A stretch of DNA of 64,000 nt from Nitrososphaerota archaeon (lineage in GTDB: Archaea > Thermoproteota > EX4484-205 > JAAOZP01). Of this stretch, positions 41,853-58,077 are shown piece after piece. A program made the translations under genes and the position numbers. Below the pieces are notes generated by a model. That model saw nothing but the letters and a program-made list of their open reading frames with translations. It was not told where the DNA came from and did not search any database. The stretch is from assembly GCA_011605725.1 (NCBI GenBank), contig JAAOZP010000011.1:64001-128000 (forward strand). Direction: 5' to 3'. Numbering within the stretch: the stretch's first letter is position 1; each line of letters starts with the position of its first letter.

Positions 41853-41965
41853 TCTGAAGATTTGAGAGTGGGCGTGTGGTTAAAAACTTCTCTCCCCCGG
41901 ATTCTTGAAACCAGTGTTAGCTTCAGGCGAGCTGGACTCGCGTTCCGCGTTCTTAAAACCATATG

Positions 41966-41972
41966 TTTATAA
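41966..41972 (+). promoter_or_regulatory. TATA box TTTATAA, probable promoter of the 42090-49506 operon
   Basis: Best TATA in the divergent spacer; 22 nt before an ATG at 41995. Confidence 0.45.
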
Positions 41973-42089
41973 GGATTCTGGATTTTAGAAACACATGCGT
42001 GGAGTGAGGGAAAACAGGAAGACAAGAATACTCTGCAACCATTTTGCTCGAAAGCAGGCTTACCCGGAGGATTCTCCTCCTGATCCCCT

Positions 42090-43508
42090 TTGACGAGCAC
42101 AGGGCCTGCTTTTAAACCTGGCTACGCTCTCCCAAGTGAGGTTTTGGAGAAGCTCAGGAATCTGCTTGGCGAGAGGTTTTCAACGGGAGATGCTGACCTT
42201 CTCTCCTACAGTCACGATTACTGGCCAATATCTCTGCAATGGGTGCTTAAAGGGAGCTTCCCCTGGGTGCCCAGCGCTGTCGCTTGGCCGGAGAACACGT
42301 TTGAAGTCCAAGAAATCGTTAAGACTGCTTACGGGAACAGTATTCCGGTCTACGCCTTCGGCGGGGGCTCAGGGGTTCTGGGCGGGACTGTTCCCGAGAA
42401 GGGAGGAATAGTTGTAGACTTGAAGAGGATGCGCTCAATCCGGCTCAACGAGGAAGACATGGTTGTCGAGGCCGAGGCTGGGGTTAACGGTTACTACTTG
42501 GAGAAGTATTTGAACAGCAAGGGTTACACGCTCGGCCATATTCCTCAATCCATCTATGTTTCAACCCTGGGAGGGTGGATTGCTACTAAAGCGACTGGAC
42601 AGTTCTCAACCAAGTACGGCGGCATAGAGGATATGGTTCTGGGGCTTGAGGCAGTCCTGCCTTGGGGGAGTGCAGTAACACTGCCGCCACATCCTAGAAC
42701 ATCAACCGGTCCGGATTTGAGAAGACTCTTCATAGGAAGTGAGGGTGTTCTAGGTATAGTTACCAGGGCCTGGCTTAAAACATGCATACTCCCGGAGGAA
42801 AGGGTTCTCCTCTCCTATGTTTCAGAAACCTTTGAAGAGGCTCTTGAATCCGTCAGGAGAATACTCAAGAGGGGTGCTAAGCCAGCTGTAGTGAGGGTTT
42901 ACGACGAGGCTGAGACTAAAAGACACTTCTACATGTTTGAAGAAGCATACGGCAGGATCATGACCGTGATCGTGGTGGAGGGGGACTCTGGAATTGCTGG
43001 GGCTGAGCGCAGGATTGTGGAGGAGGAGTTCAGAGGAAGGATGCTTGGAGAGGAGCCTGTGAAACACTGGCTTGAAACAAGGTTCATGGTTAAAGAGGCT
43101 TCCGAGTTTGCTCCGCTAGGGGTTGTTTTCGACACTATAGAGGTTTCAGTAGGCTGGAGCAGGGCTATGAGCCTCTACCGGAGCCTTGTTGAAGCGGTGC
43201 GGGCTGTTAAGGGGACGCTCTTCGCATCCGCGCATGCTTCACACTTCTATCCTCAGGGCGTCTGCTTCTACTTTACTTTCGCCGGAGTGCCTAGGGGCAA
43301 CCCGGAGAAGTATTACAACGACGTGTGGGAAGCCGCGATGAAGACTACTCTTGAAAACGGCGGGTCGATAAGCCACCACCACGGCGTCGGCAGGCAGAGG
43401 AGAAGCTGGCTTAAGAATGAGCTTGGACCTGCCTTCAACCTTCTCAAAAAGGTTAAGACTGCTCTAGACGATAAGGGTGTGATGAACCCGGGGAACATGG
43501 GGTTGTAA
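42090..43508 (+). CDS. Alkyl-dihydroxyacetonephosphate synthase (AGPS)-like FAD-linked protein, VAO family
   Basis: FGGGSGV.GG, TLGHIPQS...STLGGWIAT..TGQFSTKYGGIED, PRTSTGPD, GSEGVLG, HASHFY....FYF, and the AGPS-type GGSISHHHGVG. Confidence 0.85.
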   Translation: MTSTGPAFKPGYALPSEVLEKLRNLLGERFSTGDADLLSYSHDYWPISLQWVLKGSFPWVPSAVAWPENTFEVQEIVKTAYGNSIPVYAFGGGSGVLGGTVPEKGGIVVDLKRMRSIRLNEEDMVVEAEAGVNGYYLEKYLNSKGYTLGHIPQSIYVSTLGGWIATKATGQFSTKYGGIEDMVLGLEAVLPWGSAVTLPPHPRTSTGPDLRRLFIGSEGVLGIVTRAWLKTCILPEERVLLSYVSETFEEALESVRRILKRGAKPAVVRVYDEAETKRHFYMFEEAYGRIMTVIVVEGDSGIAGAERRIVEEEFRGRMLGEEPVKHWLETRFMVKEASEFAPLGVVFDTIEVSVGWSRAMSLYRSLVEAVRAVKGTLFASAHASHFYPQGVCFYFTFAGVPRGNPEKYYNDVWEAAMKTTLENGGSISHHHGVGRQRRSWLKNELGPAFNLLKKVKTALDDKGVMNPGNMGL

Positions 43509-43509
43509 A

Positions 43510-44655
43510 ATGCCTGGGAAATGGGACTGGCTTAAGGATGAGCTGCGCGCATCCGGATTGGCTGGAGCCACCCCCCTCGTCATCAGGTTTATCAGCGGGA
43601 GGCTACGGGGGCCTGACGACCTTGTGAAGTGTGCCCTATGTCCAAACATGTGTCGCCACGCCTGTCCAGTGGGCATAGTTGACGGGAGGGAGACGACCTC
43701 GCCGGCTGGAAAGACTAGGGCGGCTCTCCTCCTGAGGCAGGGGAGGCTGCAGCCGACGCTGGAGAACGTTTCTCCGCTTTACACCTGCCTCTCGTGCAAC
43801 GCGTGCAGCGTCTGGTGTCCTTTCGGTTTTTCAGTCGCAGACCTTGTTAGGCCAGTTAAGGAGAAGGCTGCCGGCGGCGGAAGCATCTTCAAAGAGTTTA
43901 GAGAGGTTTTTGAAAACCTTGAGAAACACGGGTATGTATATGGAGAGCCTAAGCGTGAGGATTCAGGCTTGCACGGCGACCTGCTCTACTTAAGAGGCTG
44001 CACGCTGAGGGAGAAGCAGCCGGGCGTAGCTGAGAAGGCTGAGCATGTTTTAGAGGAGCTTGGCTACAGGCCTTTCACGATTGACGAGGCGTGCTGCGGC
44101 ATACCTGCCTACAACCTTGGGAACACTAGGCTCTTCAAGAGGGTTGCGGAGAAGCAGGCTGAGAAGATAAACTCTAGCGGCGCTGGAATAATCGTAGCCT
44201 CATGCCCATCCTGCGTATACGCTTACCGAGTCCTCTACCCTAAGCACGGGGTTAAGATTAATGCTGAAGTCAATCATATTGCAGAGTTCCTAGAGGACAG
44301 GCTGAAGGGTTTTAAAGGAGAAGGCAGGGTTGTTATCCACAACCCTTGTAAGCTAGCCTTTGCACTAGGGAAGCCCAAGGCCCTTTACAACACGCTCTCC
44401 AGCGTCGAGGGGCTCACCGTCAGGGAGCCGAGGAGAAGCGGAGGCGAAACATTCTGCTGCGGGTACGGTGGGAGTGCTGTTCCTCGTCTCAACCCTCAGC
44501 TGGCCCGCAGAATAGCCTTGGAGAGGGGGGTTGAGCTTACGGAGGAGGCTGAAACCATTGTCACAGCGTGCCCAACATGCAAGCTAGCTTTAGAGTCAAA
44601 CGGTTTCAAGGTTCTCGACGTAATGGAGCTTCTCCACTCTTTCACCAGTGGTTAA
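43510..44655 (+). CDS. Fe-S protein with two ferredoxin-type clusters and two CCG domains (GlpC/GlcF/HdrD-like)
   Basis: CALCPNMCRHACP, CLSCNACSVWCP, CCGIP...SCPSC, HNPC...CCGYGG...ACPTC. Confidence 0.88.
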   Translation: MPGKWDWLKDELRASGLAGATPLVIRFISGRLRGPDDLVKCALCPNMCRHACPVGIVDGRETTSPAGKTRAALLLRQGRLQPTLENVSPLYTCLSCNACSVWCPFGFSVADLVRPVKEKAAGGGSIFKEFREVFENLEKHGYVYGEPKREDSGLHGDLLYLRGCTLREKQPGVAEKAEHVLEELGYRPFTIDEACCGIPAYNLGNTRLFKRVAEKQAEKINSSGAGIIVASCPSCVYAYRVLYPKHGVKINAEVNHIAEFLEDRLKGFKGEGRVVIHNPCKLAFALGKPKALYNTLSSVEGLTVREPRRSGGETFCCGYGGSAVPRLNPQLARRIALERGVELTEEAETIVTACPTCKLALESNGFKVLDVMELLHSFTSG

Positions 44656-44657
44656 CA

Positions 44658-46415
44658 ATGTTCACGCTAGACGATAAAGTAGCAAGCGTTTTAAAAAAGT
44701 ATCCTTACAATATTTCCTTCAGAGTAAGGGATAACATTGTTTTCCTCCAGGGAGAGGTTGACAGCCACATGGAGTGGGTTGAAATAGGGCTTTCCATAGG
44801 CAGGATAAGAGGGGTTGAGGGGGTTGTGAATAAGATAACGTGGAGAGGCGCCTCAGGGAAGGAGGCTAGAGAGGAGTGGAGAAGAAGGGTTTTCGAAGAA
44901 AAGAGGAACGCTGTGGTCGGAGAGTACGACGTGGTCATAATAGGCGGGGGAGTCGTCGGAGCAGCCCTAGCTAGAGAGCTCTCGAAATACGAGCTTAAAA
45001 CAGCTCTCCTGGAGAAGTCTACGGATATTGCTGCCGGAACCACTAAGGCGAACAACGGCATGATTCACGCGGGCGTGGAGCCCTCCAGGGGTACTCTGAA
45101 AAGAATGCTTAACGTAAGGGGGAACGCTATGTACGGTAAGCTTGCTGAGGAACTGGGTTTCAGGTTTAACCGGCTGGGCAGCCTCTGGCTGGTCACTCCA
45201 AGGACGCTGGCGTCGTACAGGAAGTATCTGCCGGGTCTGCTTTACAACCTGGTGTTGAAACACGTTTTTCCCTGGGTGGTTAAGATTAAAGGCTTGGTGA
45301 ACGGGGTTAGGAGCATTAAAATCATAAGGGGCCGAAGGATTTTCGAGCTCGAGCCGTTCGCAACCAGGGATGCTGTGGCTGCAGTCTACATTCCTTCCAC
45401 GGCTGTAGTCGACCCGTATGAGGTGGCTGTTGCCCTCGCGGAAAACGCTGAGGCTAACGGTGTTGAGATTCATCTAGAGACTGAGGCCGTCGGCTTCATC
45501 AAGGATGGTAGTGTCATCAGGGGAGTCGTAACCAATAAGGGGGTTTTCCTATGCAGATACGTCGTAAACTCCGCAGGGCTTTACGCTGACGAGGTTGCTG
45601 CACTAGCCGGCTCAGAGGAGTACACTATCCACCCGAGGAAAGGAGTACTCCTGGTTTTTCACAGGGACACCGGGGTTTTCACCCGCCACTGTCTGGCTGA
45701 GATCATTCTCCCTCAGGATCCATACACCAAGGGTGGGGGTATAAACCCTACTGTCCACGGGAACGTGCTCTGGGGGCCGACGGCGGTCGAGGTCCCGGAT
45801 AAGGAGGACACGTCCGTTACAAGGGAGGAGATAGAGCATGTCTTGAACAAGTACTCAGGCATAGTTCCCGGGTTTCCGAGGGACAAGGTGATAAGGTATT
45901 TCGCAGGCGTAAGGGCGGCGACATTCACAGAGGACTTCGTCATAAGGCCTGCCAAATGGGTTAGGAACCTCCTACACGTAGCCGGAATACAGTCGCCCGG
46001 GCTCGCCGCCTCACCAGCCATAGCGGAATACGCTGTCGAGAAGCTGAGGGGAATGGGGCTGAGGCTCAAGCCGAAGACGGGCTTCAACCCCAGAAGGAGG
46101 CCAATGCCGAGGGCAGCCGACATGAGCCTTGAGGAGCTTGAGGAGAAGATAAGGATGGACCCCGCGTGGGGCAGGATCGTGTGCACCTGCGAATTCGTCT
46201 CAGAAGCTGAGATCGTGGAGGCTGTTCGAAGAGGCGCTAAGACCCTCGACGCTGTGAAGAGGCGTACTAGGGCAGGGATGGGGGAGTGTCAAGGGAGCTT
46301 CTGCACGCTTGAAACAGCTCTCATCCTGTCTAGGGAGACAGGCGTGCCTTTGGACATGCTTCTTAAGGAGGAGGGTAGGCTGTTCAACGGCTACGTCAGG
46401 GGTGAGCAGCCGTGA
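44658..46415 (+). CDS. FAD-dependent glycerol-3-phosphate dehydrogenase-like protein (GlpA/LhgO family) with an N-terminal BON domain and a C-terminal BFD-like [2Fe-2S] domain
   Basis: BON-like VFLQGEV...GVEGVVNKI; IGGGVVG, TTKANNGMIHAG, PRKG, TKGG, GIQSPGLAASPAIA; IVCTCE...RTRAGMGECQGSFC. ATG at 44658. Confidence 0.85.
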   Translation: MFTLDDKVASVLKKYPYNISFRVRDNIVFLQGEVDSHMEWVEIGLSIGRIRGVEGVVNKITWRGASGKEAREEWRRRVFEEKRNAVVGEYDVVIIGGGVVGAALARELSKYELKTALLEKSTDIAAGTTKANNGMIHAGVEPSRGTLKRMLNVRGNAMYGKLAEELGFRFNRLGSLWLVTPRTLASYRKYLPGLLYNLVLKHVFPWVVKIKGLVNGVRSIKIIRGRRIFELEPFATRDAVAAVYIPSTAVVDPYEVAVALAENAEANGVEIHLETEAVGFIKDGSVIRGVVTNKGVFLCRYVVNSAGLYADEVAALAGSEEYTIHPRKGVLLVFHRDTGVFTRHCLAEIILPQDPYTKGGGINPTVHGNVLWGPTAVEVPDKEDTSVTREEIEHVLNKYSGIVPGFPRDKVIRYFAGVRAATFTEDFVIRPAKWVRNLLHVAGIQSPGLAASPAIAEYAVEKLRGMGLRLKPKTGFNPRRRPMPRAADMSLEELEEKIRMDPAWGRIVCTCEFVSEAEIVEAVRRGAKTLDAVKRRTRAGMGECQGSFCTLETALILSRETGVPLDMLLKEEGRLFNGYVRGEQP

Positions 46416-47653
46416 GGGACGCCACGGTGATAGGAGGGGGGCCTTCAGGTCTGGCTGCAGCCGTATGGCTTGCGGAGAAGGGTTACGACGTAGCGGTCGT
46501 CGAAGTGATGGGGGAGCTCGGCGGGATGTTGACGCAGTGCATTCACGATGGCTTTGGAACAAGGGTTTTCGGAGAAGCCCTTTCGGGGCCAGAGTTTTCA
46601 GAAAGGCTTGTGAAAAAGGCCCGGTTGCTCGGGCTCAGGACGTTTCTGAATACCTACGTGAAGGAGGTTAGGATCGGGAAGGAGTTTAAAGAGGTTGTTG
46701 CAGTCAGCCCGGCGGGGGTTCAGAGGCTTCAGACTAGGGTGATAGTCTACGCGATAGGCTGCAGAGAGAGGAACGGTTTTGAAATAAGGCTTGGCGGAGC
46801 AAGGCCGGCAGGGGTCTACACGGCTGGAATGGTTCAGAGGCTCGTAAACCTGTACGGGGTTCTCCCGGGGAGGAGGATCGTGATAATGGGCGGCGGCGAC
46901 GTCGGCATGATTGTAGCTAGACACCTCCACCTGGAGGGTGTGGAGAGCATCCTGATGGTTTTCCCAGAGGCTGGCTTCGCAGGGCTTCCGAGGAATGTTC
47001 AACAATGCATTCTAGACTTCGGAATCCCGTTCAGGCCCAGGACGGTTGTGAAAAAGGTAATCGGGAAAGAGAGGGTGGAAGGAGTCGTCTTAACCAGGGT
47101 TGATGAAAAGTGGAACCCTGTTGAGGGGACTGAGGAATTCCATGCTTGCGACACTGTTGTCCTCGCCCTAGGCTTAGTGCCCTACACCGGGGAGCTTAAG
47201 CTCGGGGTTAGAATGGATCCTGCAACCAGAGGCCCTGAGGTGAACGAGTTTTTCGAAACCAGTGTGCAAGGGGTTTTCGCCGTGGGGAACCTCGTCCAGG
47301 TTTTCGACTATGTTGACGACGCTTTTGAAACCGCATGCATAGCTGCCAGGGGTGTGGAAAAGTATTTGAACAGCGGGTTGAAGACGGCTCCGATAAGGCT
47401 TTCCCCAGGGGAAAACGTTAGGATGCTTACACCCCAGAGGGTTGAATGGGTTGACGATGCGGACGTGCCGGTGTTCCTGAGACCGGCTGTTGAGAAGGCT
47501 AATGTACGCATAGTGGTGAGGAACAGGGAGGGAAGGGTCCTCGGAGGATTCTTCAAGAGGTATGTTAGGCCTTCTACGCTTGAGAGAATAGAGGTTCCCA
47601 GAAGCATGCTAAGCAACCTGCAGGAGGTTTCGATAGATATTGCAGAGGATTGA
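46412..47653 (+). CDS. NAD(P)/FAD-dependent pyridine nucleotide-disulfide oxidoreductase (G3PDH partner subunit)
   Basis: IGGGPSGLAAA, LGGML.QCIHDGFG, GCRER, RPAGVYTAG, RNVQQC, GVFAVGN; GTGA overlap with the upstream stop. Confidence 0.88.
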   Translation: MRDATVIGGGPSGLAAAVWLAEKGYDVAVVEVMGELGGMLTQCIHDGFGTRVFGEALSGPEFSERLVKKARLLGLRTFLNTYVKEVRIGKEFKEVVAVSPAGVQRLQTRVIVYAIGCRERNGFEIRLGGARPAGVYTAGMVQRLVNLYGVLPGRRIVIMGGGDVGMIVARHLHLEGVESILMVFPEAGFAGLPRNVQQCILDFGIPFRPRTVVKKVIGKERVEGVVLTRVDEKWNPVEGTEEFHACDTVVLALGLVPYTGELKLGVRMDPATRGPEVNEFFETSVQGVFAVGNLVQVFDYVDDAFETACIAARGVEKYLNSGLKTAPIRLSPGENVRMLTPQRVEWVDDADVPVFLRPAVEKANVRIVVRNREGRVLGGFFKRYVRPSTLERIEVPRSMLSNLQEVSIDIAED

Positions 47654-48002
47654 GCTTCTCTGCACCCGGTGCCCCAGGGGCTGCCTTCTAAGGGTTACTG
47701 CAACAGGGAGCAGAGTGGCTGTGGAGGGTAACGAGTGTCCAGTTGGCGAGAAGCACGGGGCCGAGGAGGCTTTGAACCCTAGGCGGACCGTCTCGACAAC
47801 TGTTAGGATAATTGGCGCGAGGCTTCCACGCCTTCCAGTAAGGACTTCTGAGCCGGTGTTGAAGAATAGGGTGAGGGATGTTGTTGCTGCGCTTAAGAAC
47901 ATTGCAGTAGAGGCCCCGGTTAAGGCGGGTCAGGTAATTCTTAAAAACGTTGCTGACACTGGAGTAGACATCATAGCTGAGAGGGATATGGAGAGGGCTT
48001 AG
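47640..48002 (+). CDS. DUF1667 small Cys-rich protein (third G3PDH-associated subunit)
   Basis: CTRCPRGC, GNECPVG, P.RTVSTTV, LPVRTSEP, APVKAG, TGVDIIA. Confidence 0.88.
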   Translation: MQRIELLCTRCPRGCLLRVTATGSRVAVEGNECPVGEKHGAEEALNPRRTVSTTVRIIGARLPRLPVRTSEPVLKNRVRDVVAALKNIAVEAPVKAGQVILKNVADTGVDIIAERDMERA

Positions 48003-48003
48003 C

Positions 48004-49506
48004 ATGAGCTATTTTCTCATACTGGATGTCGGAACCACCAACGTGAAGGCGCATGCTTTTTCGATTAATGGTGAAAACCTGCTTGAACTAGCGGAGAGGC
48101 TTCGGCCAAGCTATCCTAGGCCTGGATGGGTTGAAGAAGACCCGATGGACTTCATCATCAGGATTAGCAGACTCGTCGACATGTTTTTCGAAAAGCTTGG
48201 GAAACCGCTTGGAATAGGCTTGACAAACCAGCGGAGCAGCACCGTCTTATGGAGCAAGAAGTCTGGGGAGCCTCTTTACAACGCGATCACGTGGCAGGAC
48301 ACTAGGACCAAGGATATTGTAGAAGAGTTTTCCTCAAGGTTTCTAGTAAGCATGGGGAGGACACTGGGCAAGGCTTTCAACCTTCTCTCTAAGGCTTTTC
48401 CACCTTTAAAGGAGACAAGCAGGGGAGCCTACTTTGTTACACTTGCATACGTGTCGTTCGGAACAACACATTCCTCCATGCACCTAAGATGGCTCATCGA
48501 CAATGTTCCAGATGCGAGGCGCGCCGTTGAAAACGGTGAGGCTGTTTTCGGAACGATAGATTCATGGATCGCTTGGAACCTTACTGGCAGACATGTAACC
48601 GACTATACTAACGCGAGTGCCACAGGCCTGTTCGACTCTTTCAGCATGAAATGGAGCAGGAACATTTTAAGCATCGTAGGGGTTCCGAGAAGCATTCTTC
48701 CAACAATAGTTCCTAACGATGCTGCAATAGGCAGGGTTAAGGATTACGATGTTCCTCTTCTCACAATGATAGCTGACCAGCAGGCCTCACTTTACATGGC
48801 GGGTGTTTCCAAGGGTGTTGTGAAGATGACGAGCGGCACCGGAACATTCATAGATATGAATGTTGGGGAGAAGTGTATGGCTGGAGCGAGAGGACTCTAC
48901 CCGTTGATTGCACTCGCCACCAAGCGTAGAAACCTTTACCTGCTGGAGGGGAATGTTCTAACCTCAGGCTCAACGCTAGACTGGCTTATTGAAGTAGGGC
49001 TTATGAAAGACTATTCTGAGATACGTGAAGCCTTCGAGAAAACGGGGGAGGGCGGAATAGTGTTCATCCCCGCTCTCTCCGGGCTCGGAACACCCTATGT
49101 GAAGCCTGATGCAACAGGCATGATCCTTGGGATCACGAGGGGAACCAGGAGGGAAGACCTGATCCGAGGGGCTGTTGAGGGCGTGGCTATGCGCTGCGTG
49201 GAGATACTCGAGTATCTTGAGAAAACAACTGGAATAAGGGTACAGCGCGTAGTAGCCGACGGCGGGCTCTCTAAGAGCGACGACTTCCTCCGGACTGTTG
49301 CAAACTATTCTTCAAAGCTTGTCTTGAGACCAGTACACCTGAATGGCTCCGCCTACGGGACCTACATGCTGTGTAAGAACATATTGCTCGGAAAGGATCC
49401 TGTGGAAGCATGGGAAGAGCCTGCTGTCGAGAAGGCTTTCACCCCGGTTGAACCCAGGGGGGAGCTTATGGCACGCTGGACCAGAGCTTTGAGGAGGCTT
49501 CTTTAA
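48004..49506 (+). CDS. FGGY-family glycerol kinase-like protein resembling the eukaryotic GK5 subfamily
   Basis: LDVGTT, PGWVE, TNQRSS, ITWQD.R, FGTIDSW, TD.TNAS.TG, ADQQAS, K.TSGTG, GLYPLI, DGG; amphipathic insert after WQD. Confidence 0.85.
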   Translation: MSYFLILDVGTTNVKAHAFSINGENLLELAERLRPSYPRPGWVEEDPMDFIIRISRLVDMFFEKLGKPLGIGLTNQRSSTVLWSKKSGEPLYNAITWQDTRTKDIVEEFSSRFLVSMGRTLGKAFNLLSKAFPPLKETSRGAYFVTLAYVSFGTTHSSMHLRWLIDNVPDARRAVENGEAVFGTIDSWIAWNLTGRHVTDYTNASATGLFDSFSMKWSRNILSIVGVPRSILPTIVPNDAAIGRVKDYDVPLLTMIADQQASLYMAGVSKGVVKMTSGTGTFIDMNVGEKCMAGARGLYPLIALATKRRNLYLLEGNVLTSGSTLDWLIEVGLMKDYSEIREAFEKTGEGGIVFIPALSGLGTPYVKPDATGMILGITRGTRREDLIRGAVEGVAMRCVEILEYLEKTTGIRVQRVVADGGLSKSDDFLRTVANYSSKLVLRPVHLNGSAYGTYMLCKNILLGKDPVEAWEEPAVEKAFTPVEPRGELMARWTRALRRLL

Positions 49507-52059: not shown

Positions 52060-55000
52060 ATGATGATATTAAACACATGCCGCATATTCGTTAGGCGTTT
52101 TGGAAAAACATGGGCAGGAGTACTGCTCGTAAGCATGATGCTCCTAGTCGTGCTCTCAATGTTGCCAACATCCCTGCATACTAGTGCAGTACCCCCCAGC
52201 AGACAACCCCCCAGTATTACGATTAATACTGTTACTCAGGACGGTAATCTTTTTACCGTCAAAGGGGTTGCTAGCTTCAGCGTCCCTGCTGGCCAGACGA
52301 GTCAATACCATGTTCAAGTGGTCTGGGAGCATAACGGTAGTGTTGTCTTTCAAAACGATTATGCAGAGATCCCCCCGTTGAAAGACCTGGGTGAAGAAAG
52401 ATACGAGTATGATTTTGCTGATTCTAGAACGCTGAATACTGGCGGGGAATGGACAATCAGGGCTAGACTCTACCATGTGAAACCTCCCGGGAACGATAAT
52501 CAGGCAGATGCTTCTACGAAGATCATTTTCACAACTTTTATGGTGACCATTACCACTAAGCCGGAAGGATTAAAAATAGCTGTGGACGGGGAAGTCTACA
52601 CGTCTCCGCAAACCTTTGCTTGGCTAAACGGCTCTAAGCACACTATCGGCACCTTCTCCCCGCAGTCTGAAGGAGACACGATTTACACGTGGGTTTCTTG
52701 GAGCGACGGCGGTGAAATAAGCCACATGGTGACAGCAGTAGGCGACGCCATCTACACAGCATTCTTCAAGAAGCAGTATCTTGTGTGCTTCAACCAAACG
52801 GGTCTTGACAGTTCTGCAACCGGGGTTATTGTAACGGTTAATGGTTCATCTAAAAGCTATGACAAACTGCCTTTCAGCAACTGGTATGATGAGAACGATT
52901 GGATCAGCTATAGTTATGCTGAAACAGTGAATAGCTCTCAAACAGGGAAAAGGTTCAAGCTTAACTATGTCACTGGACCAGCCTCGCCTTTCCAAGTCTC
53001 TTCATTCACGCTAGTGATTGGCAGCTACACGCCTCAATACCTTCTGACTGTTGAAACCGAGCCTGACGGCTTAACAATTATTCCTGGTGGCGGATGGTAT
53101 GATGCAAACTCGTTAATCATTTTAACAGCGCCGGGAACAATACCGGTTTCACAAGGAATCCAATACAGGTTCAGCCACTGGAGCATAGACGGGGTTTCTC
53201 AAGGCATGGGGGTCAACCCTATTACGGTGAGCATGAACACGACTCATACTGCAACAGCCCACTATGTTCTTCAATACTATCTGACGGTGGAATCTCCATA
53301 CGGGGCACCAAGCCCGGGCAGCGGATGGTTTGACGCTGGAACAAGTATAACAGCATCAGTCACCTCACCCTGGCCTCCTGACTCTGCAGACACCCGGAGT
53401 GTTTGCACAGGATGGGTAGGCACAGGAAGTGCCCCGTCCTCTGGAACCAATACTGAAGTGTCTTTCACTATTAATGCGCCCTCAAGCATAACCTGGAGCT
53501 GGAAAACCCAGTACCGCGTCGCTTTCATCCAGACAGGTGTTGACGTCGACTTCACCGGGGTAGTGATGACTATTGACGGTATCGGCCACGGTAGGGAGGG
53601 TCACGCCGCCTGGTATGATGTTGGAGCAAGCATCGACTTCAACTTCACGGGACTCCTGGTTGTTGCAGTCAACCAGAAACGATACGTGTTGACTAGCGTC
53701 AACGCTTCCACACCCTTGATTGTTACAGGCCCGCTTACCGTCATGGGCAGCTATAGGACACAGTATTACTTGACGATGATCACGAGCCACGGTACAGTAA
53801 GCCCCGGCGACGGGTGGTTTGACGCTGGTTCAACCGTGGAGATAACCGCTGCCCTGCCTCCGGTTGTCCAGGGTGAACGCTATGTTTGGATGGGATGGAC
53901 AGGGACAGGAAGCGGGTCATACACCGGTATGCAGAACCCGGCTCAAATAACCGTTAACAGCCCGATTAAAGAGTCAGCCTCATGGAAGCATCAATACTAT
54001 CTGGCTGTGAACACGCCATACGGCACTGCTGGCGGCGAAGACTGGTATGATGAGGGTTCAGCCGCTTACGCTACAGTAGCCCCGCTAACGGTTGACGGGC
54101 CGGATGGCGTAAGGTATGTCTTTTCACACTGGAGTGGAGATGCTTCAGGGACTGCTTCAACTTCAGACCCGATTACGATGAATGCGCCGAAGACGGCGAT
54201 TGCCATCTGGAAGACTCAGTACCGAGTTGTGTTCAACCAGAACGGTTTAGATGAAACAGCTGTTGGAACCGTTGTCACTGTCAACGGCTCAGAACATATG
54301 CAGAGCAACCTGCCTTTCACAACATGGGTGGACAGCGGTGCTTCAATCAACTATGGCTTTGAAAGCATTGTTTTAACCAGCGACCCCGGTAAGAGGTTTA
54401 GGCTAAACAATGTGACTGGGCCTGAAACACCGTTTACTGTTACTGGTCCCGTAACGGTTGCTGGAAACTATGTCACTCAATGGCGGGTCGTGTTCACTGT
54501 AGATCCACCCGGTTCAGGAACAACCGTGCCCTCTGGAGCCGGCTGGTATGACGCAGGGATACGGTTCAGCATATCTGCTGAGGCTAATCCTGGGTTCTCG
54601 TTTTCAGAGTGGACTGTGAACACCTCATCCATAAATATCGCCGACACTTCGTCGCAGCAGACCAGTGTGACAGTAAATGGTCAAGGAACCGTCACAGCAT
54701 GCTTCACCATTTTCTACACCGTCTCTTTCACTCAAATAGGCTTGCCAACCGGGGTTGAGTGGAGCGTTACTTTCAACGGGGTGACGAAATCCTCTACGTC
54801 GAACACTATTGTTTTCAGCAATGTTCAAACCGGAGACTACGCTTGGAGCACGCTAACGCTTATTCAATTAGATTCTGGAACAAGATACTTAGCGTCACCC
54901 TCATTCGGAACACTAAGCGTGCCGTCGCAGCTGACGCAAACGATAAGCTACACTGCCCAGTATAGGGTTGAAATATCATGGTCTGGGCTTGATGCTGAAG

Positions 55001-58000
55001 CCAGCGGCGGGAAAGTGGTCATCATCACGGTAGGCGGCACGGTTTTCAGCAGGAATGTGGAAGACGCTTTCTACGAGGAGTGGGTTAATGCTGGAGCAAC
55101 AGTAAGCTATGCTTTCGAGGAAACCTTGTCTACAGCAATGTCGGGGAAAAGGTTTAGCCTCCACCATGTATCAGGCACTTCGGCAAGCTTCTCCAACGAC
55201 TTCGGTCCCATTTCAGGACCAGTATATGAAACAGCATACTATAAAGCTCAATACTATATTACTGTAATCAGTGACTACGGCAGCCCAACTTCCTCAACAT
55301 GGGTTGACGAGGGGACCAGTTTCACCGCCTCGGTGACAAGCCCGGCTGAAACCATGGTCAACCAGCACCAATGGGTCTGCACAGGCTTCAAGGTAGATGA
55401 GAATCCTGTTCAAGAGGGTTCGAGCTACACGTTTGTAAACGTGCAGACGCCGCACACCATAGTGTTTTACTGGAAGAAACAGTTCTGGATCCAGGTTAAC
55501 AGCAACCATGGTTCTCCAACACCCTCCCAATGGGTGGATCAGGGTGGAAGCCTTATGGTGAGCGTAACCTCTCCAACCGACGAGTCTGAAGGAGTAAGGT
55601 ATAGGTGTAAAGGCTACACTATAGATAGCAACCCGCCTGTTGAAGACGGGAGCACAAGCCACTTTTTCAGTGACGTTCAGAGTGCTCACACGATTACTTT
55701 CAACTGGATCGCCCAGTACAAGGTTACTTTCTACACTAATCCTGTTCAGGGGACTGTAACGGTTCGGGGAGTAGTTAAGAATAATGGTGAAAGCGAGTTT
55801 TACGATGATGGGGAATCAATCCCGATTACTGCGAACCCTCCCTCTGGCTACTGGTTCTCACGCTGGACAGTAACCGGCGGAGTCGCTGTAGACAACTATG
55901 GGAGTCAAACGGCAATTATGATGGTGAGCAGACCAGGCAGTCTTTCAGCAATATTCGTCATAAACGCTGTCTCAATAACAATCACTTCCAGCCCTGTTAC
56001 TGGAGTAGGCTTCATCAAGGTTGACGGCGTGCCCTACAATACTCCGGTAACTTTCACATGGGTAACTGGGACGACCCACGTGCTGGAGGCGGTTTCAATC
56101 GTGCCTGGGGCAACAGGCATTAGGTATGTATGGAAAAGCTGGAGTGACAGCGGGGCTCAGATGCATGTCTACACTGTCCCCAGCATGTCTGAGACAGTGA
56201 CAGCATGCTTCTCAACCCAGTATTATCTGACGGTGATTTCACCGCACGATACTCCAGGAGGCTCAGGATGGTATGAGGAGGGCTCAATCGCGTATGCAAC
56301 GCTTGAGACCAGAATTGTTGTCGAGAACGGTGTGCAATACGTGTTTACAGGCTGGAGTGGAGACGCTTCCGGAACAAGCCTTACGAGTAACCCGATAATG
56401 ATGAACGGTCCGAAAACCGCTGTGGCGAACTGGGCAACTTCAGCATACACGGTGACTCTCGACAAGAGCCCGAGGCAAGGAGTGATCACAGTTGACGGTG
56501 TTGTTTACACGAGTCTTCCGGTAGTGCTCAACTGGGTTCCAGGATCTTCTCACACGGTTATGGTTCCCAGTATTGAAGAGGCGGGAGGCACAAGGTATGT
56601 TTTCAGAGAATGGTCAGACGGCTCGACACAGGCTAGTAGAATAATCGTCGCTGAGAAAACTGGAGCAGTCTATGTCGCCTACTACAACGTGCAGCATAGG
56701 CTAACGGTCTACTCTGACCACGGGCTGACCACGGGCTCAGGATGGTATGACGAGGGTGTTGAAGCAGTTTTCTCCGTAACACCAACCATAGTGAGAGACG
56801 AGACAGAGGGAGTGGAGTACACGTTTAAAGGCTGGGTTGGAAGCGGGGCTGGAAAACACTACACCGGGCCGGATAATCCTGCGCGAGTCATAATGACTGG
56901 GCCTGTTGAGGAGAAAGCAGAATGGGAGCCTTCAATGTACTGTTTAAAAGTTGTCAGCGAGTATGGAGACCCGTATGGAAGCGGCTGGTATCCTGTAAAC
57001 TCTGAAGCACGGTTCGGAGTAAACACGCCTGTTAACCATGGTAACGGCACGATGAGAGTCTTCTTAAACTGGTTTGGAGACATAAGTCTCAGGGAGCCTG
57101 TTGGAACCCTGATTATGGTTAGGCCGTATACTGTAATAGCCAACTGGGACACTCAATACTTAGTGGTTTACAATACGACTGCTCCAAACGGTGTTTTACT
57201 ATCTGTGCCAGGAGTGCCTCAAACATTGGCACCGGGCTTCAACGTTTACGCGCAGTATTACTCAGCAGGAAGCAGGGTTAAAATCGGGCCGGCGCCCGGA
57301 ACCGTGTACGCGACTGAGGATACAAGGTATTGTTTCGAAGGCTGGATGATAAATGGGGAACCGGTCTCTTCCGATTCGAACCTAGACTTTACTGTGAATA
57401 AGCCTCTGCACATATCCATGACATATGGAACCGAGATACTCTTGACTGTAAACGTGGTAGGGGCGAATCGCAACTTCACTGTGAAACTTACGGTGGAGAA
57501 GAGCCCAGCCTACGTGCTTGACATCACGCCCTTATCTCCCTTTAAAGAATGGGTGAAGAAAGACACTGGCTTAACCCTCACCGTTTCCAGCCCGAACAAG
57601 ATAGGCCGTGGAGAGTGGGCTGTTTTCAGAGAATGGTCTGGAGACGCTCAGGGAAGTCAGAGAATAATCTCGTTGAAAGCTTCGAGACCAATAACGGTGA
57701 ACGCAGTGTTCTTCGCGGTCAACCCGGTTGCAGAATCAATACCCTACTCGCTGTTAACGGGCATAGTGTCGATAGTTCTTTCACGTTTAATACGGAGAAA
57801 ACGTGCAGAAGAACCCTTGGAACACCGGAGCTATTCGCCAACCCTGGGAATAGTGTCGCTGACTGCTGTGTTAACCGTATCAATAATAGTGAGCATCAGC
57901 GTAGCCATGGGCTACGGGATAAACGTTGCTGAGCTTCCAGACTTAGAAAACTGGGCCGTATTGTTCACCGGGGTTGAGGCAATCTTCTTCCTGGTCGCGA

Positions 58001-58077
58001 CACTGCTTGTTACAAGGCGTTCTTACCCGAGGAAGATGGAGATCCCAGTCATCTATCCGAACCCCTACGGGATTTAA
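52060..58077 (+). CDS. Giant (2005 aa) cell-surface repeat protein with about 20 beta-sandwich modules and three C-terminal TM helices
   Basis: Signal peptide; recurring QY.LTV.S.YG...G.GW(Y/F)D.G...F..WSGD units (InlB-B/Flg_new-like), F.Q.GLD units and one thermopsin-type YTVSFTQIGLP.G.EWSV unit; hydrophobic C-terminus. Confidence 0.85.
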   Translation: MMILNTCRIFVRRFGKTWAGVLLVSMMLLVVLSMLPTSLHTSAVPPSRQPPSITINTVTQDGNLFTVKGVASFSVPAGQTSQYHVQVVWEHNGSVVFQNDYAEIPPLKDLGEERYEYDFADSRTLNTGGEWTIRARLYHVKPPGNDNQADASTKIIFTTFMVTITTKPEGLKIAVDGEVYTSPQTFAWLNGSKHTIGTFSPQSEGDTIYTWVSWSDGGEISHMVTAVGDAIYTAFFKKQYLVCFNQTGLDSSATGVIVTVNGSSKSYDKLPFSNWYDENDWISYSYAETVNSSQTGKRFKLNYVTGPASPFQVSSFTLVIGSYTPQYLLTVETEPDGLTIIPGGGWYDANSLIILTAPGTIPVSQGIQYRFSHWSIDGVSQGMGVNPITVSMNTTHTATAHYVLQYYLTVESPYGAPSPGSGWFDAGTSITASVTSPWPPDSADTRSVCTGWVGTGSAPSSGTNTEVSFTINAPSSITWSWKTQYRVAFIQTGVDVDFTGVVMTIDGIGHGREGHAAWYDVGASIDFNFTGLLVVAVNQKRYVLTSVNASTPLIVTGPLTVMGSYRTQYYLTMITSHGTVSPGDGWFDAGSTVEITAALPPVVQGERYVWMGWTGTGSGSYTGMQNPAQITVNSPIKESASWKHQYYLAVNTPYGTAGGEDWYDEGSAAYATVAPLTVDGPDGVRYVFSHWSGDASGTASTSDPITMNAPKTAIAIWKTQYRVVFNQNGLDETAVGTVVTVNGSEHMQSNLPFTTWVDSGASINYGFESIVLTSDPGKRFRLNNVTGPETPFTVTGPVTVAGNYVTQWRVVFTVDPPGSGTTVPSGAGWYDAGIRFSISAEANPGFSFSEWTVNTSSINIADTSSQQTSVTVNGQGTVTACFTIFYTVSFTQIGLPTGVEWSVTFNGVTKSSTSNTIVFSNVQTGDYAWSTLTLIQLDSGTRYLASPSFGTLSVPSQLTQTISYTAQYRVEISWSGLDAEASGGKVVIITVGGTVFSRNVEDAFYEEWVNAGATVSYAFEETLSTAMSGKRFSLHHVSGTSASFSNDFGPISGPVYETAYYKAQYYITVISDYGSPTSSTWVDEGTSFTASVTSPAETMVNQHQWVCTGFKVDENPVQEGSSYTFVNVQTPHTIVFYWKKQFWIQVNSNHGSPTPSQWVDQGGSLMVSVTSPTDESEGVRYRCKGYTIDSNPPVEDGSTSHFFSDVQSAHTITFNWIAQYKVTFYTNPVQGTVTVRGVVKNNGESEFYDDGESIPITANPPSGYWFSRWTVTGGVAVDNYGSQTAIMMVSRPGSLSAIFVINAVSITITSSPVTGVGFIKVDGVPYNTPVTFTWVTGTTHVLEAVSIVPGATGIRYVWKSWSDSGAQMHVYTVPSMSETVTACFSTQYYLTVISPHDTPGGSGWYEEGSIAYATLETRIVVENGVQYVFTGWSGDASGTSLTSNPIMMNGPKTAVANWATSAYTVTLDKSPRQGVITVDGVVYTSLPVVLNWVPGSSHTVMVPSIEEAGGTRYVFREWSDGSTQASRIIVAEKTGAVYVAYYNVQHRLTVYSDHGLTTGSGWYDEGVEAVFSVTPTIVRDETEGVEYTFKGWVGSGAGKHYTGPDNPARVIMTGPVEEKAEWEPSMYCLKVVSEYGDPYGSGWYPVNSEARFGVNTPVNHGNGTMRVFLNWFGDISLREPVGTLIMVRPYTVIANWDTQYLVVYNTTAPNGVLLSVPGVPQTLAPGFNVYAQYYSAGSRVKIGPAPGTVYATEDTRYCFEGWMINGEPVSSDSNLDFTVNKPLHISMTYGTEILLTVNVVGANRNFTVKLTVEKSPAYVLDITPLSPFKEWVKKDTGLTLTVSSPNKIGRGEWAVFREWSGDAQGSQRIISLKASRPITVNAVFFAVNPVAESIPYSLLTGIVSIVLSRLIRRKRAEEPLEHRSYSPTLGIVSLTAVLTVSIIVSISVAMGYGINVAELPDLENWAVLFTGVEAIFFLVATLLVTRRSYPRKMEIPVIYPNPYGI

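Follow-up and report, generated by a model that had tools for sequence, protein, structure and literature searches.

A conserved six-gene archaeal cluster with an AGPS-type flavoprotein, its Fe-S partner, a BON-FngABC-type dehydrogenase and a divergent glycerol-kinase-like protein, possibly acting on C1-substituted glycerols

We have analysed a stretch of 64,000 nucleotides (nt) from a Nitrososphaerota archaeon (GTDB lineage Archaea; Thermoproteota; EX4484-205; JAAOZP01; assembly GCA_011605725.1, contig JAAOZP010000011.1, positions 64,001 to 128,000 of the forward strand), hereafter the window, whose first letter is position 1. Positions 42090–49506 of the window are filled by six open reading frames (ORFs), g1 to g6, which combine an AGPS-type flavoprotein and an iron-sulfur (Fe-S) subunit with a trio resembling a glycerol 3-phosphate (G3P) dehydrogenase and with a kinase, and which very probably form one non-canonical pathway. 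The original prediction, made from the letters of the window, had read them as a candidate O2-independent pathway for glycerol-ether lipids; its description of six co-oriented genes and of their domains was confirmed by the ORF map and Pfam. The features are as follows, with protein lengths in amino acids (aa).

41853–42089, + strand: upstream intergenic region, the presumed promoter, with a TTTATAA element inside (ORF map and sequence)
42090–43508, + strand: g1, AGPS-type FAD flavoprotein, 472 aa (Pfam FAD_binding_4 and FAD-oxidase_C)
43510–44655, + strand: g2, GlcF/GlpC/HdrD-type Fe-S subunit, 381 aa (Pfam Fer4_8 and two CCG)
44658–46415, + strand: g3, BON-fused FngA/GlpA-type FAD dehydrogenase with a C-terminal BFD [2Fe-2S] domain, 585 aa (Pfam BON, DAO and Fer2_BFD)
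46412–47653, + strand: g4, FngB-type NAD/FAD oxidoreductase, 413 aa (Pfam Pyr_redox_2)
47640–48002, + strand: g5, FngC-type DUF1667 protein, 120 aa (Pfam DUF1667, 94.9 bits)
48004–49506, + strand: g6, divergent glycerol-kinase-like FGGY kinase, 500 aa (Pfam FGGY_N/C and TIGR01311)

Gaps of 1, 2 and 1 nt separate g1 from g2, g2 from g3 and g5 from g6, while g3 overlaps g4 by 4 nt and g4 overlaps g5 by 14 nt. For g3, a GTG start at 44568 was set aside, the most likely start being the ATG at 44658, which lies 2 nt past the g2 stop and gives the 585-aa protein. The intergenic region upstream of g1 also serves a divergent NTP-transferase gene.

Chance does not account for the cluster; distantly related archaeal phyla and bacteria have the same set of genes. 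The full six-gene set was also found in Palaeococcus pacificus, Njordarchaeum and Theionarchaea, and further in Thermofilaceae, Thermoplasmata, Hadarchaeota and Thermoproteota metagenome-assembled genomes (MAGs); in Thermococcus sp. EP1, close homologues of g1 and g6 lie on one contig. Our locus survey covered 80 fetched loci, 36 of them flanked by 6 kb or more on each side (27 bacterial and 9 of the archaeal or anaerobe type), and a kinase and/or a G3P dehydrogenase (G3PDH)-like gene stands beside the AGPS-like gene in 33 of these 36. Co-occurrence in other genomes, on which the original prediction had staked itself, was thus found, and it extends to gene fusions. Three types of context can be told apart: type A, with g1-g2, BON-FngABC and kinase; type B, in which g1-g2 stand by themselves or next to a kinase (Bacillota/Syntrophomonadaceae, a Desulfovibrio MAG, Promethearchaeota and Bathyarchaeota); and type C, with a GlpD-type dehydrogenase, g1 and kinase and no g2, in Acidimicrobiales, Binatia and others.

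Fusions join every pair of the module parts. At least 10 proteins are fusions of GlpD with the AGPS-like unit; the latter is fused to an FGGY kinase in P0261, where the kinase reads NQRAT, and to Fer4/CCG domains in P0242, P0245 and P0272, and a Methylocystaceae locus (L033) encodes a CCG protein fused to BON-DAO-BFD. All of the AGPS-like fusion proteins carry the HHH loop discussed below, and no fusion to FAR or to an acyltransferase was found among the long homologues. In an unbiased clustering of neighbours, the largest "family" consisted of antisense ORFs over g1 in high-GC genomes, and the remaining recurrent neighbours reflected mostly synteny among related Acidimicrobiales. An AMP-binding gene upstream of g1 in one locus (L021) looks acetyl-CoA synthetase-like. 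None of these neighbours was taken as lipid evidence. As separate observations, an uncultured bacterium (L091:3345-8853) carries two tandem AGPS-like genes followed by a CCG gene and a GHL13/GHL10 glycosyl-hydrolase-like gene, and many database proteins of ~900-990 aa hold only FAD_binding_4/FAD-oxidase_C and may have arisen from two AGPS-like units joined in tandem.

The setting of the cluster in its own genome is that of an accessory, horizontally moved island. The host is one of 26 species genomes that make up a small class. Among 16 congeners g1 was detected in just 3, which marks the cluster as accessory, and one of the three keeps no more than a decayed remnant with stop codons (G021:C13:23467-23937; 80% identity across residues 306-468, interrupted by three in-frame stops). 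The GC content is 0.537 in the cluster versus 0.473 elsewhere in the window; other segments of 7.4 kb have a mean of 0.470 with a standard deviation of 0.013, so that the cluster stands about 5 standard deviations higher, and its GC content at third codon positions is 0.56-0.64. The flanking genes (PHP, amidohydrolase, NTP-transferase and FMN reductase) bear no relation to the cluster. Farther downstream, an ORF of 2005 aa occupies positions 52060-58077 of the window and is followed by several co-oriented ORFs.

The genome holds a second, canonical glycerol module on another contig (G000:C1:75800-80600; locus L017:7807-12541), made of a GlpK of 525 aa, an FngA-like protein of 503 aa lacking BON, a Pyr_redox_2 protein and DUF1667. 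This GlpK passes the curated cut-offs with 634 and 662 bits (634 on TIGR01311, cut-off 590), and the module is flanked by a GH123 gene, an epimerase, a URO-D-like gene and a xylose-isomerase-like TIM barrel. Since a canonical GlpK with FngABC exists elsewhere in the genome, the six-gene cluster is best regarded as a second module with a different job; the possibility of a plain glycerol operon was rejected for this reason and because g6 fails the GlpK tests described below. Two copies of DUF1667 are likewise present in 3 of the 5 other carrier genomes. As had been noted for the cluster, no glycerol facilitator of the MIP family (PF00230) was found, here in the whole assembly, which is 93% complete. 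Taken together, the six genes are one conserved, horizontally mobile unit that stands apart from the ordinary glycerol route.

Judged by its sequence, g1 is a member of the AGPS branch and not of the 2-hydroxyacid-dehydrogenase branch. Its best PDB match in phmmer was AGPS (4bby, 196 bits), with D-lactate dehydrogenase (LDHD) at 123 bits, and its identity to AGPS is 28-29%. In the HMMER alignment, Arg419 of AGPS corresponds to R269 of g1, Tyr578 to Y394 and the HHH motif to H429-431 within an SHHHGVG loop, and all of these are invariant across 22 archaeal homologues; among the 80 loci, conservation of the HHH motif is circular, as it was one of the search patterns, and R269 and Y394 alone count there. 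In AGPS, Tyr578, Arg419 and the His615-617 loop (guinea-pig numbering) are catalytic; the entries 4bc7 and 4bca mark Arg419 and Tyr578 as functional residues in their titles, and the residue roles were reportedly set out by Nenci et al. in 2012. The AlphaFold model of g1 (predicted local distance difference test, pLDDT, 84.5) retrieved AGPS chains as its first 33 Foldseek matches, with TMq of 0.87-0.90 versus 0.81-0.83 for mLDHD. The AGPS-like flavoprotein of the original prediction is therefore borne out by PDB sequence search, by active-site residues and by Foldseek. The alignment begins at about residue 180 of AGPS, which is residue 35 of g1 (472 versus 658 aa), so that g1 is without the N-terminal domain of eukaryotic AGPS. 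A D-lactate/glycolate dehydrogenase was considered and rejected, in line with the original prediction: the genome's own GlcD paralogue reads GEHG in place of the HHHG of g1 and lacks the AGPS Tyr, and on the GlcD model TIGR00387 g1 scores 169 bits against a cut-off of 568.

Directly next to g1, g2 has a pair of ferredoxin-type [4Fe-4S] motifs ahead of two CCG domains, and its cysteines C41/44/48/52 and C93/96/99/103, together with two CCG sets, are invariant in 14 homologues. Of the 80 loci, 32 have it adjoining g1, and so does every one of the 9 well-flanked loci of the archaeal or anaerobe type. A complex of the two proteins was predicted with an ipSAE of 0.92, the best control reaching 0.00; 58 of 80 solved complexes and 2 of 110 mismatched pairs came up to the mark applied to ipSAE, counts that are only rough because our own alignments were used. 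Contacts agreed between runs by at least 88%, the partner pLDDT was at least 88, and the modelled contact places the first cluster motif of g2 (residues 39-50) on the GGGS FAD loop and on residues 133-157 of g1, a geometry that, in the model, is as expected for electron transfer between flavin and cluster. In the locus survey g2 is found in anaerobic lineages and is missing from aerobic ones, a distribution that agrees either with a true electron outlet or with a subunit that holds the flavin in its oxidised state in the absence of O2 and quinones. The idea that g2 serves as GlpC for g3 only was rejected, because the g1-g2 pair occurs without g3 in Bacillota, the Desulfovibrio MAG, Promethearchaeota and Bathyarchaeota; a link to g3 in addition to g1 is possible, given the L033 fusion. 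The Fe-S architecture, to which no known cluster had been thought comparable in the original prediction, proved not to be unique, as anaerobic bacteria and archaea commonly carry the g1-g2 pair, which occurs also in fused form.

The g3-g4-g5 trio resembles FngABC of Pyrococcus furiosus (Schut, Poole, Adams 2026, PMC13689815), a G3P oxidoreductase that bifurcates electrons and depends on ferredoxin and NAD. The BON domain of g3 (PF04972) scores 30.2 bits against a gathering cut-off of 27 and forms an N-terminal extension of ~90 aa that is missing in the canonical FngA-like paralogue of the same genome, to which g3 is 38% identical. A PRKG segment is kept between the two proteins, while an internal hydrophobic/basic segment measures 33 residues in g3 and 16 in the paralogue. 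BON was found in 16 of 18 non-canonical FngA-type g3 sequences, and was found neither in L031 and L064 nor in the canonical paralogue. The BON/CCG/AGPS-like version is not mentioned in archaeal G3PDH surveys.

The kinase g6 departs from GlpK in a similar manner. Its score on TIGR01311 is 346 bits against a cut-off of 590, its best PDB match is the Thermus thermophilus glycerol kinase (GK) with 285 bits, and its identity to GlpKs is 33-36%. Using E. coli numbering, we take Arg83, Glu84, Trp103, Tyr135, Asp245 and Phe270 to be the glycerol-binding residues of GlpK; g6 keeps R83, W103, D245, Q246 and F270, reads NQRSS where GlpK reads NQRET (Glu84 to Ser), and has lost the Tyr135 motif, in whose place lies an insertion of ~27 aa. 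This insert is cationic and amphipathic, with a helical hydrophobic moment of 0.55-0.62 (above the 95th percentile of the protein) and a charge of +3, and its region was modelled as helices at residues 103-149 with a pLDDT of 84-89. The g6 clade is archaea-only, identity falling sharply from 43% to 36% at its border with the true GlpKs. The Glu84 and the Tyr135 motif were lost in all 20 AGPS-linked kinases compared, archaeal and bacterial, with the catalytic Asp245 kept; this remodels the pocket at the end away from the phosphorylated hydroxyl, and because archaeal and bacterial kinases share the losses, the altered pocket is a property of the module rather than of one lineage. The GK5-like character given to g6 in the original prediction is putative, its one support being the automatic name of an Atlas cluster (rank 3, mostly bacterial). 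In mammals, the kinase for alkylglycerols is now identified as ACAD10, which is not an FGGY kinase.

We tentatively propose, as something less than a probable account, that the module converts a C1-substituted glycerol into dihydroxyacetone phosphate (DHAP) by means of the kinase, the dehydrogenase and a cleavage of the AGPS type. In this scheme g6 would act on a glycerol derivative substituted at one end (C1/O1) and phosphorylate the primary hydroxyl left free at the other, the likeliest substrate being a monoalkyl- or monoacyl-glycerol from lipid debris, and g3-g5 would oxidise C2 to give a C1-substituted dihydroxyacetone phosphate. Tyr-assisted enolisation in g1 would then be followed by a covalent flavin-N5 adduct at C1 with expulsion of the substituent, the C1-O bond being broken or exchanged, and water would finish the reaction, yielding DHAP for glycolysis and an alcohol or acid. 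By docking on the FAD domain of g1, g2 would wire the flavin to Fe-S electron transfer, either keeping the flavin oxidised in a ferredoxin-poised cytoplasm or, should the cleavage be oxidative (hemiacetal route), taking away two electrons, and it may connect to the g3 complex as well. We infer in this way the substrate class, the step order, the direction and the role of g2. Redox-neutral ether exchange, which the original prediction had entertained for g1, does not explain the redox role to which the obligatory Fe-S partner in anaerobes points.

Is the substrate a lipid? The extra parts of the dehydrogenase and of the kinase, from which lipid adaptation had been predicted, are real when the two proteins are compared with their canonical paralogues; the lipid or alkylglycerol substrate itself did not gain the same standing. 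These parts could instead anchor the proteins at the membrane for electron transfer, or form protein contacts. A lipidic, C1-substituted glycerol is favoured by the altered far end of the g6 pocket and by BON and the inserts. The hydrophobic insert of g3 and the amphipathic insert of g6 are together in all 10 clusters that could be scored for both, and both are missing from L031 and L051. Lipid kinases of the DAGK_cat/YegS type follow g1-g2 directly in Bacillota and in a Desulfovibrio MAG, and one occupies the usual position of the FGGY kinase in the Methylocystaceae cluster L033. In a theionarchaeal locus (L005:16076-20129) the cluster is rearranged, with a gene for a YdjM membrane hydrolase between its halves; just past it come two genes for SCP2 lipid carriers and one for a Zn-alcohol dehydrogenase. 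In a Promethearchaeota locus an alpha/beta hydrolase comes after the cluster trio. The corresponding operon of Pseudomonas aeruginosa is co-regulated with phospholipase C (PMC8151288). A lipid or ether substrate is thus plausible and unproven.

Several points weigh against the lipid scheme. The bacterial kinases of the module are without the amphipathic insert, the AGPS N-terminal domain is absent from g1, and deletion of the P. aeruginosa operon gave no phenotype on the media tried (PMC8151288). By analogy with GlpC for GlpABC, BON and CCG could only dock a respiratory-type dehydrogenase at the membrane, and the inserts of g3 and g6 could be a contact surface between both proteins. A dedicated Fe-S subunit, conserved among anaerobes, suits a true dehydrogenase more than it suits redox-neutral AGPS chemistry, and archaeol, whose C2 is etherified, could not enter the route, which would be limited to mono-substituted glycerols. 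Many FngABC homologues have moreover been argued to use soluble polyol phosphates, from polyols other than glycerol (PMC13689815). The most specific form of our proposal, an O2-independent cleavage of glyceryl ether (and ester) lipids, in which a mono-alkylglycerol would be phosphorylated and oxidised at C2 by a membrane-docked enzyme of the FngABC type before covalent flavin chemistry of the AGPS type, wired to an Fe-S subunit, releases DHAP and a free alcohol, is speculative and, in our estimate, rather unlikely.

Perhaps the substrate is instead a soluble one, either a small polyol or a C1-modified glycerol (a tetritol, a deoxy- or a glycosyl-glycerol), with g1-g2 acting as a two-electron dehydrogenase on a DHAP-like ketose phosphate and sending the electrons on through its Fe-S clusters, an explanation that we regard as possible and on the doubtful side. 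It would make sense of an Fe-S partner that is conserved in anaerobes, is predicted to lie on the FAD domain and is sometimes fused to g1, and of its absence from aerobic bacterial versions, as would be expected if O2 or a quinone accepts the electrons. It also agrees with the non-glycerol polyols inferred for many FngABC homologues (PMC13689815), with the bacterial module kinases that carry no amphipathic insert, and with the content of the host genome, which has nine FGGY kinase genes in 2.2 Mb (L007-L014), among them xylulokinase-, rhamnulokinase- and AI-2-kinase-like ones; this set of sugar kinases is unusually rich for an archaeal genome of that size. Nevertheless, g1 holds the exact catalytic set of AGPS and not that of the 2-hydroxyacid dehydrogenases, no isomerase, aldolase or the like recurs in the cluster to handle the oxidised product, lipid kinases of the DAG-kinase family recur in bacterial clusters, and the BON and amphipathic inserts are left unexplained.

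A second alternative runs the route forwards, so that the module would make alkyl-DHAP and hence ether lipids of the G3P type: glycerol would be turned into G3P and this into DHAP or acyl-DHAP, g1 then exchanging acyl for alkyl as in eukaryotes and myxobacteria. The AGPS catalytic residues of g1 are as this requires, and the AGPS reaction itself needs no O2. The authors of the GliR study proposed the same for PA3026-PA3024, by reasoning in the style of KEGG (PMC8151288). Against it, no acyltransferase of the PlsC/GNPAT type (PF01553) was found in the 93%-complete genome, the cluster included, and none of the long homologues brought in FAR or an acyltransferase by fusion. The ordinary archaeal GGGP synthase is present (whence also the archaeal identity of the genome), G3P and DHAP are already supplied by the canonical glycerol module, the cluster is accessory (3 of 16 congeners have it, one of them in decayed form), and a recent survey saw no evidence of a plasmalogen pathway in Archaea (bioRxiv 2025.10.10.681575). 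The forward, biosynthetic run that the original prediction had allowed for is therefore improbable.

The weakest explanation, ordinary glycerol catabolism by a second GlpK/FngABC copy with a GlcD/GlcF-type D-lactate/glycolate dehydrogenase, for instance to dispose of methylglyoxal-derived D-lactate, could call on weak matches of g1 and g2 to GlcD- and GlcF-type models, on the classical pairing of GlcD with GlcF and on two functionally similar GK/G3PDH copies in S. acidocaldarius (PMC11962113), but is most improbable in view of a g1 score far under the GlcD cut-off (169 against 568 bits), of its HHHG and AGPS Tyr versus the GEHG of the true in-genome GlcD, of a kinase under the GlpK cut-off that has lost Glu84 and Tyr135, and of the fusions of AGPS-like proteins to GlpD and to the kinase elsewhere, which are unexpected for a side-reaction enzyme.

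To our knowledge, AGPS-type enzymes are known only as makers of ether bonds, and AGMO, which needs O2, is the only enzyme known to break alkylglycerols (PMC7911779). If cleavage of lipids by the module is true, it would be the first known anaerobic counterpart of this alkylglycerol monooxygenase, and cleavage of ether lipids would span prokaryotes of both domains in anoxic sediments and hot springs, plus aerobes such as Pseudomonas and Acidimicrobiia. The module is widespread in archaea and bacteria alike, and solving it would tell what a large orphan family does, P. aeruginosa PA3026-PA3024 included, would define a new substrate class for the bifurcating FngABC enzymes, and might reveal anaerobic scavenging of ether lipids. 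Two cultured Thermococcales, Palaeococcus pacificus with the whole cluster and Thermococcus sp. EP1 with its close g1 and g6 homologues, make it testable.

It is worth setting the cluster beside the systems that it resembles, among them the bacterial triad already described (PMC8151288) and FngABC, described in 2026 (PMC13689815). With AGPS (EC 2.5.1.26; 4bby, 2uuu), g1 has in common the two-domain VAO/PCMH flavoprotein fold, Arg419, Tyr578 and the His-His-His loop. It differs in being without the N-terminal region of ~180 residues, in having an obligatory Fe-S/CCG partner, and in its company, which is a kinase and a G3P-type dehydrogenase instead of GNPAT or FAR. AGPS proper is redox-neutral and stands alone; the conserved partner of g1 is predicted, from the model, to sit at its FAD domain, where it may or may not carry net electrons. 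The layout of that partner, with two [4Fe-4S] motifs and two CCG domains, is the one seen in GlcF of GlcDEF, in GlpC and in HdrD; GlcF pairs with GlcD, and g2 likewise with a FAD_binding_4 flavoprotein, though one of the AGPS type and not a 2-hydroxyacid dehydrogenase.

As to the dehydrogenase, g3, g4 and g5 match FngA (DAO with BFD 2Fe-2S), FngB (Pyr_redox_2) and FngC (DUF1667), with a kinase nearby; g3 adds the N-terminal BON and the internal hydrophobic insert, and in one bacterium (L033) a protein of its type is fused to the CCG protein. With GlpK (TIGR01311; 2dpn, 2zf5), g6 shares the full-length FGGY fold, Arg83, Trp103, Asp245, Gln246 and Phe270, yet it lies below the family cut-off, has Ser for Glu84 and a Tyr135 region rebuilt with an insert, and falls in a separate clade.

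Finally, a published parallel in gene content is found in the GliR regulon of P. aeruginosa, where PA3026-PA3025-PA3024(-PA3023) encode an AGPS-like protein, a G3P-dehydrogenase homologue and an FGGY kinase, a set that is biochemically unsolved (PMC8151288). The aerobic bacterial type differs from the archaeal module in its GlpD-type dehydrogenase and in having no CCG Fe-S subunit, BON or kinase insert. As published, the Pseudomonas operon nonetheless presents the same triad as the archaeal module, alongside a canonical GlpK/GlpD, and its arrangement was seen in the 27 well-flanked bacterial loci, the kinases compared sharing the loss of Glu84 and Tyr135.

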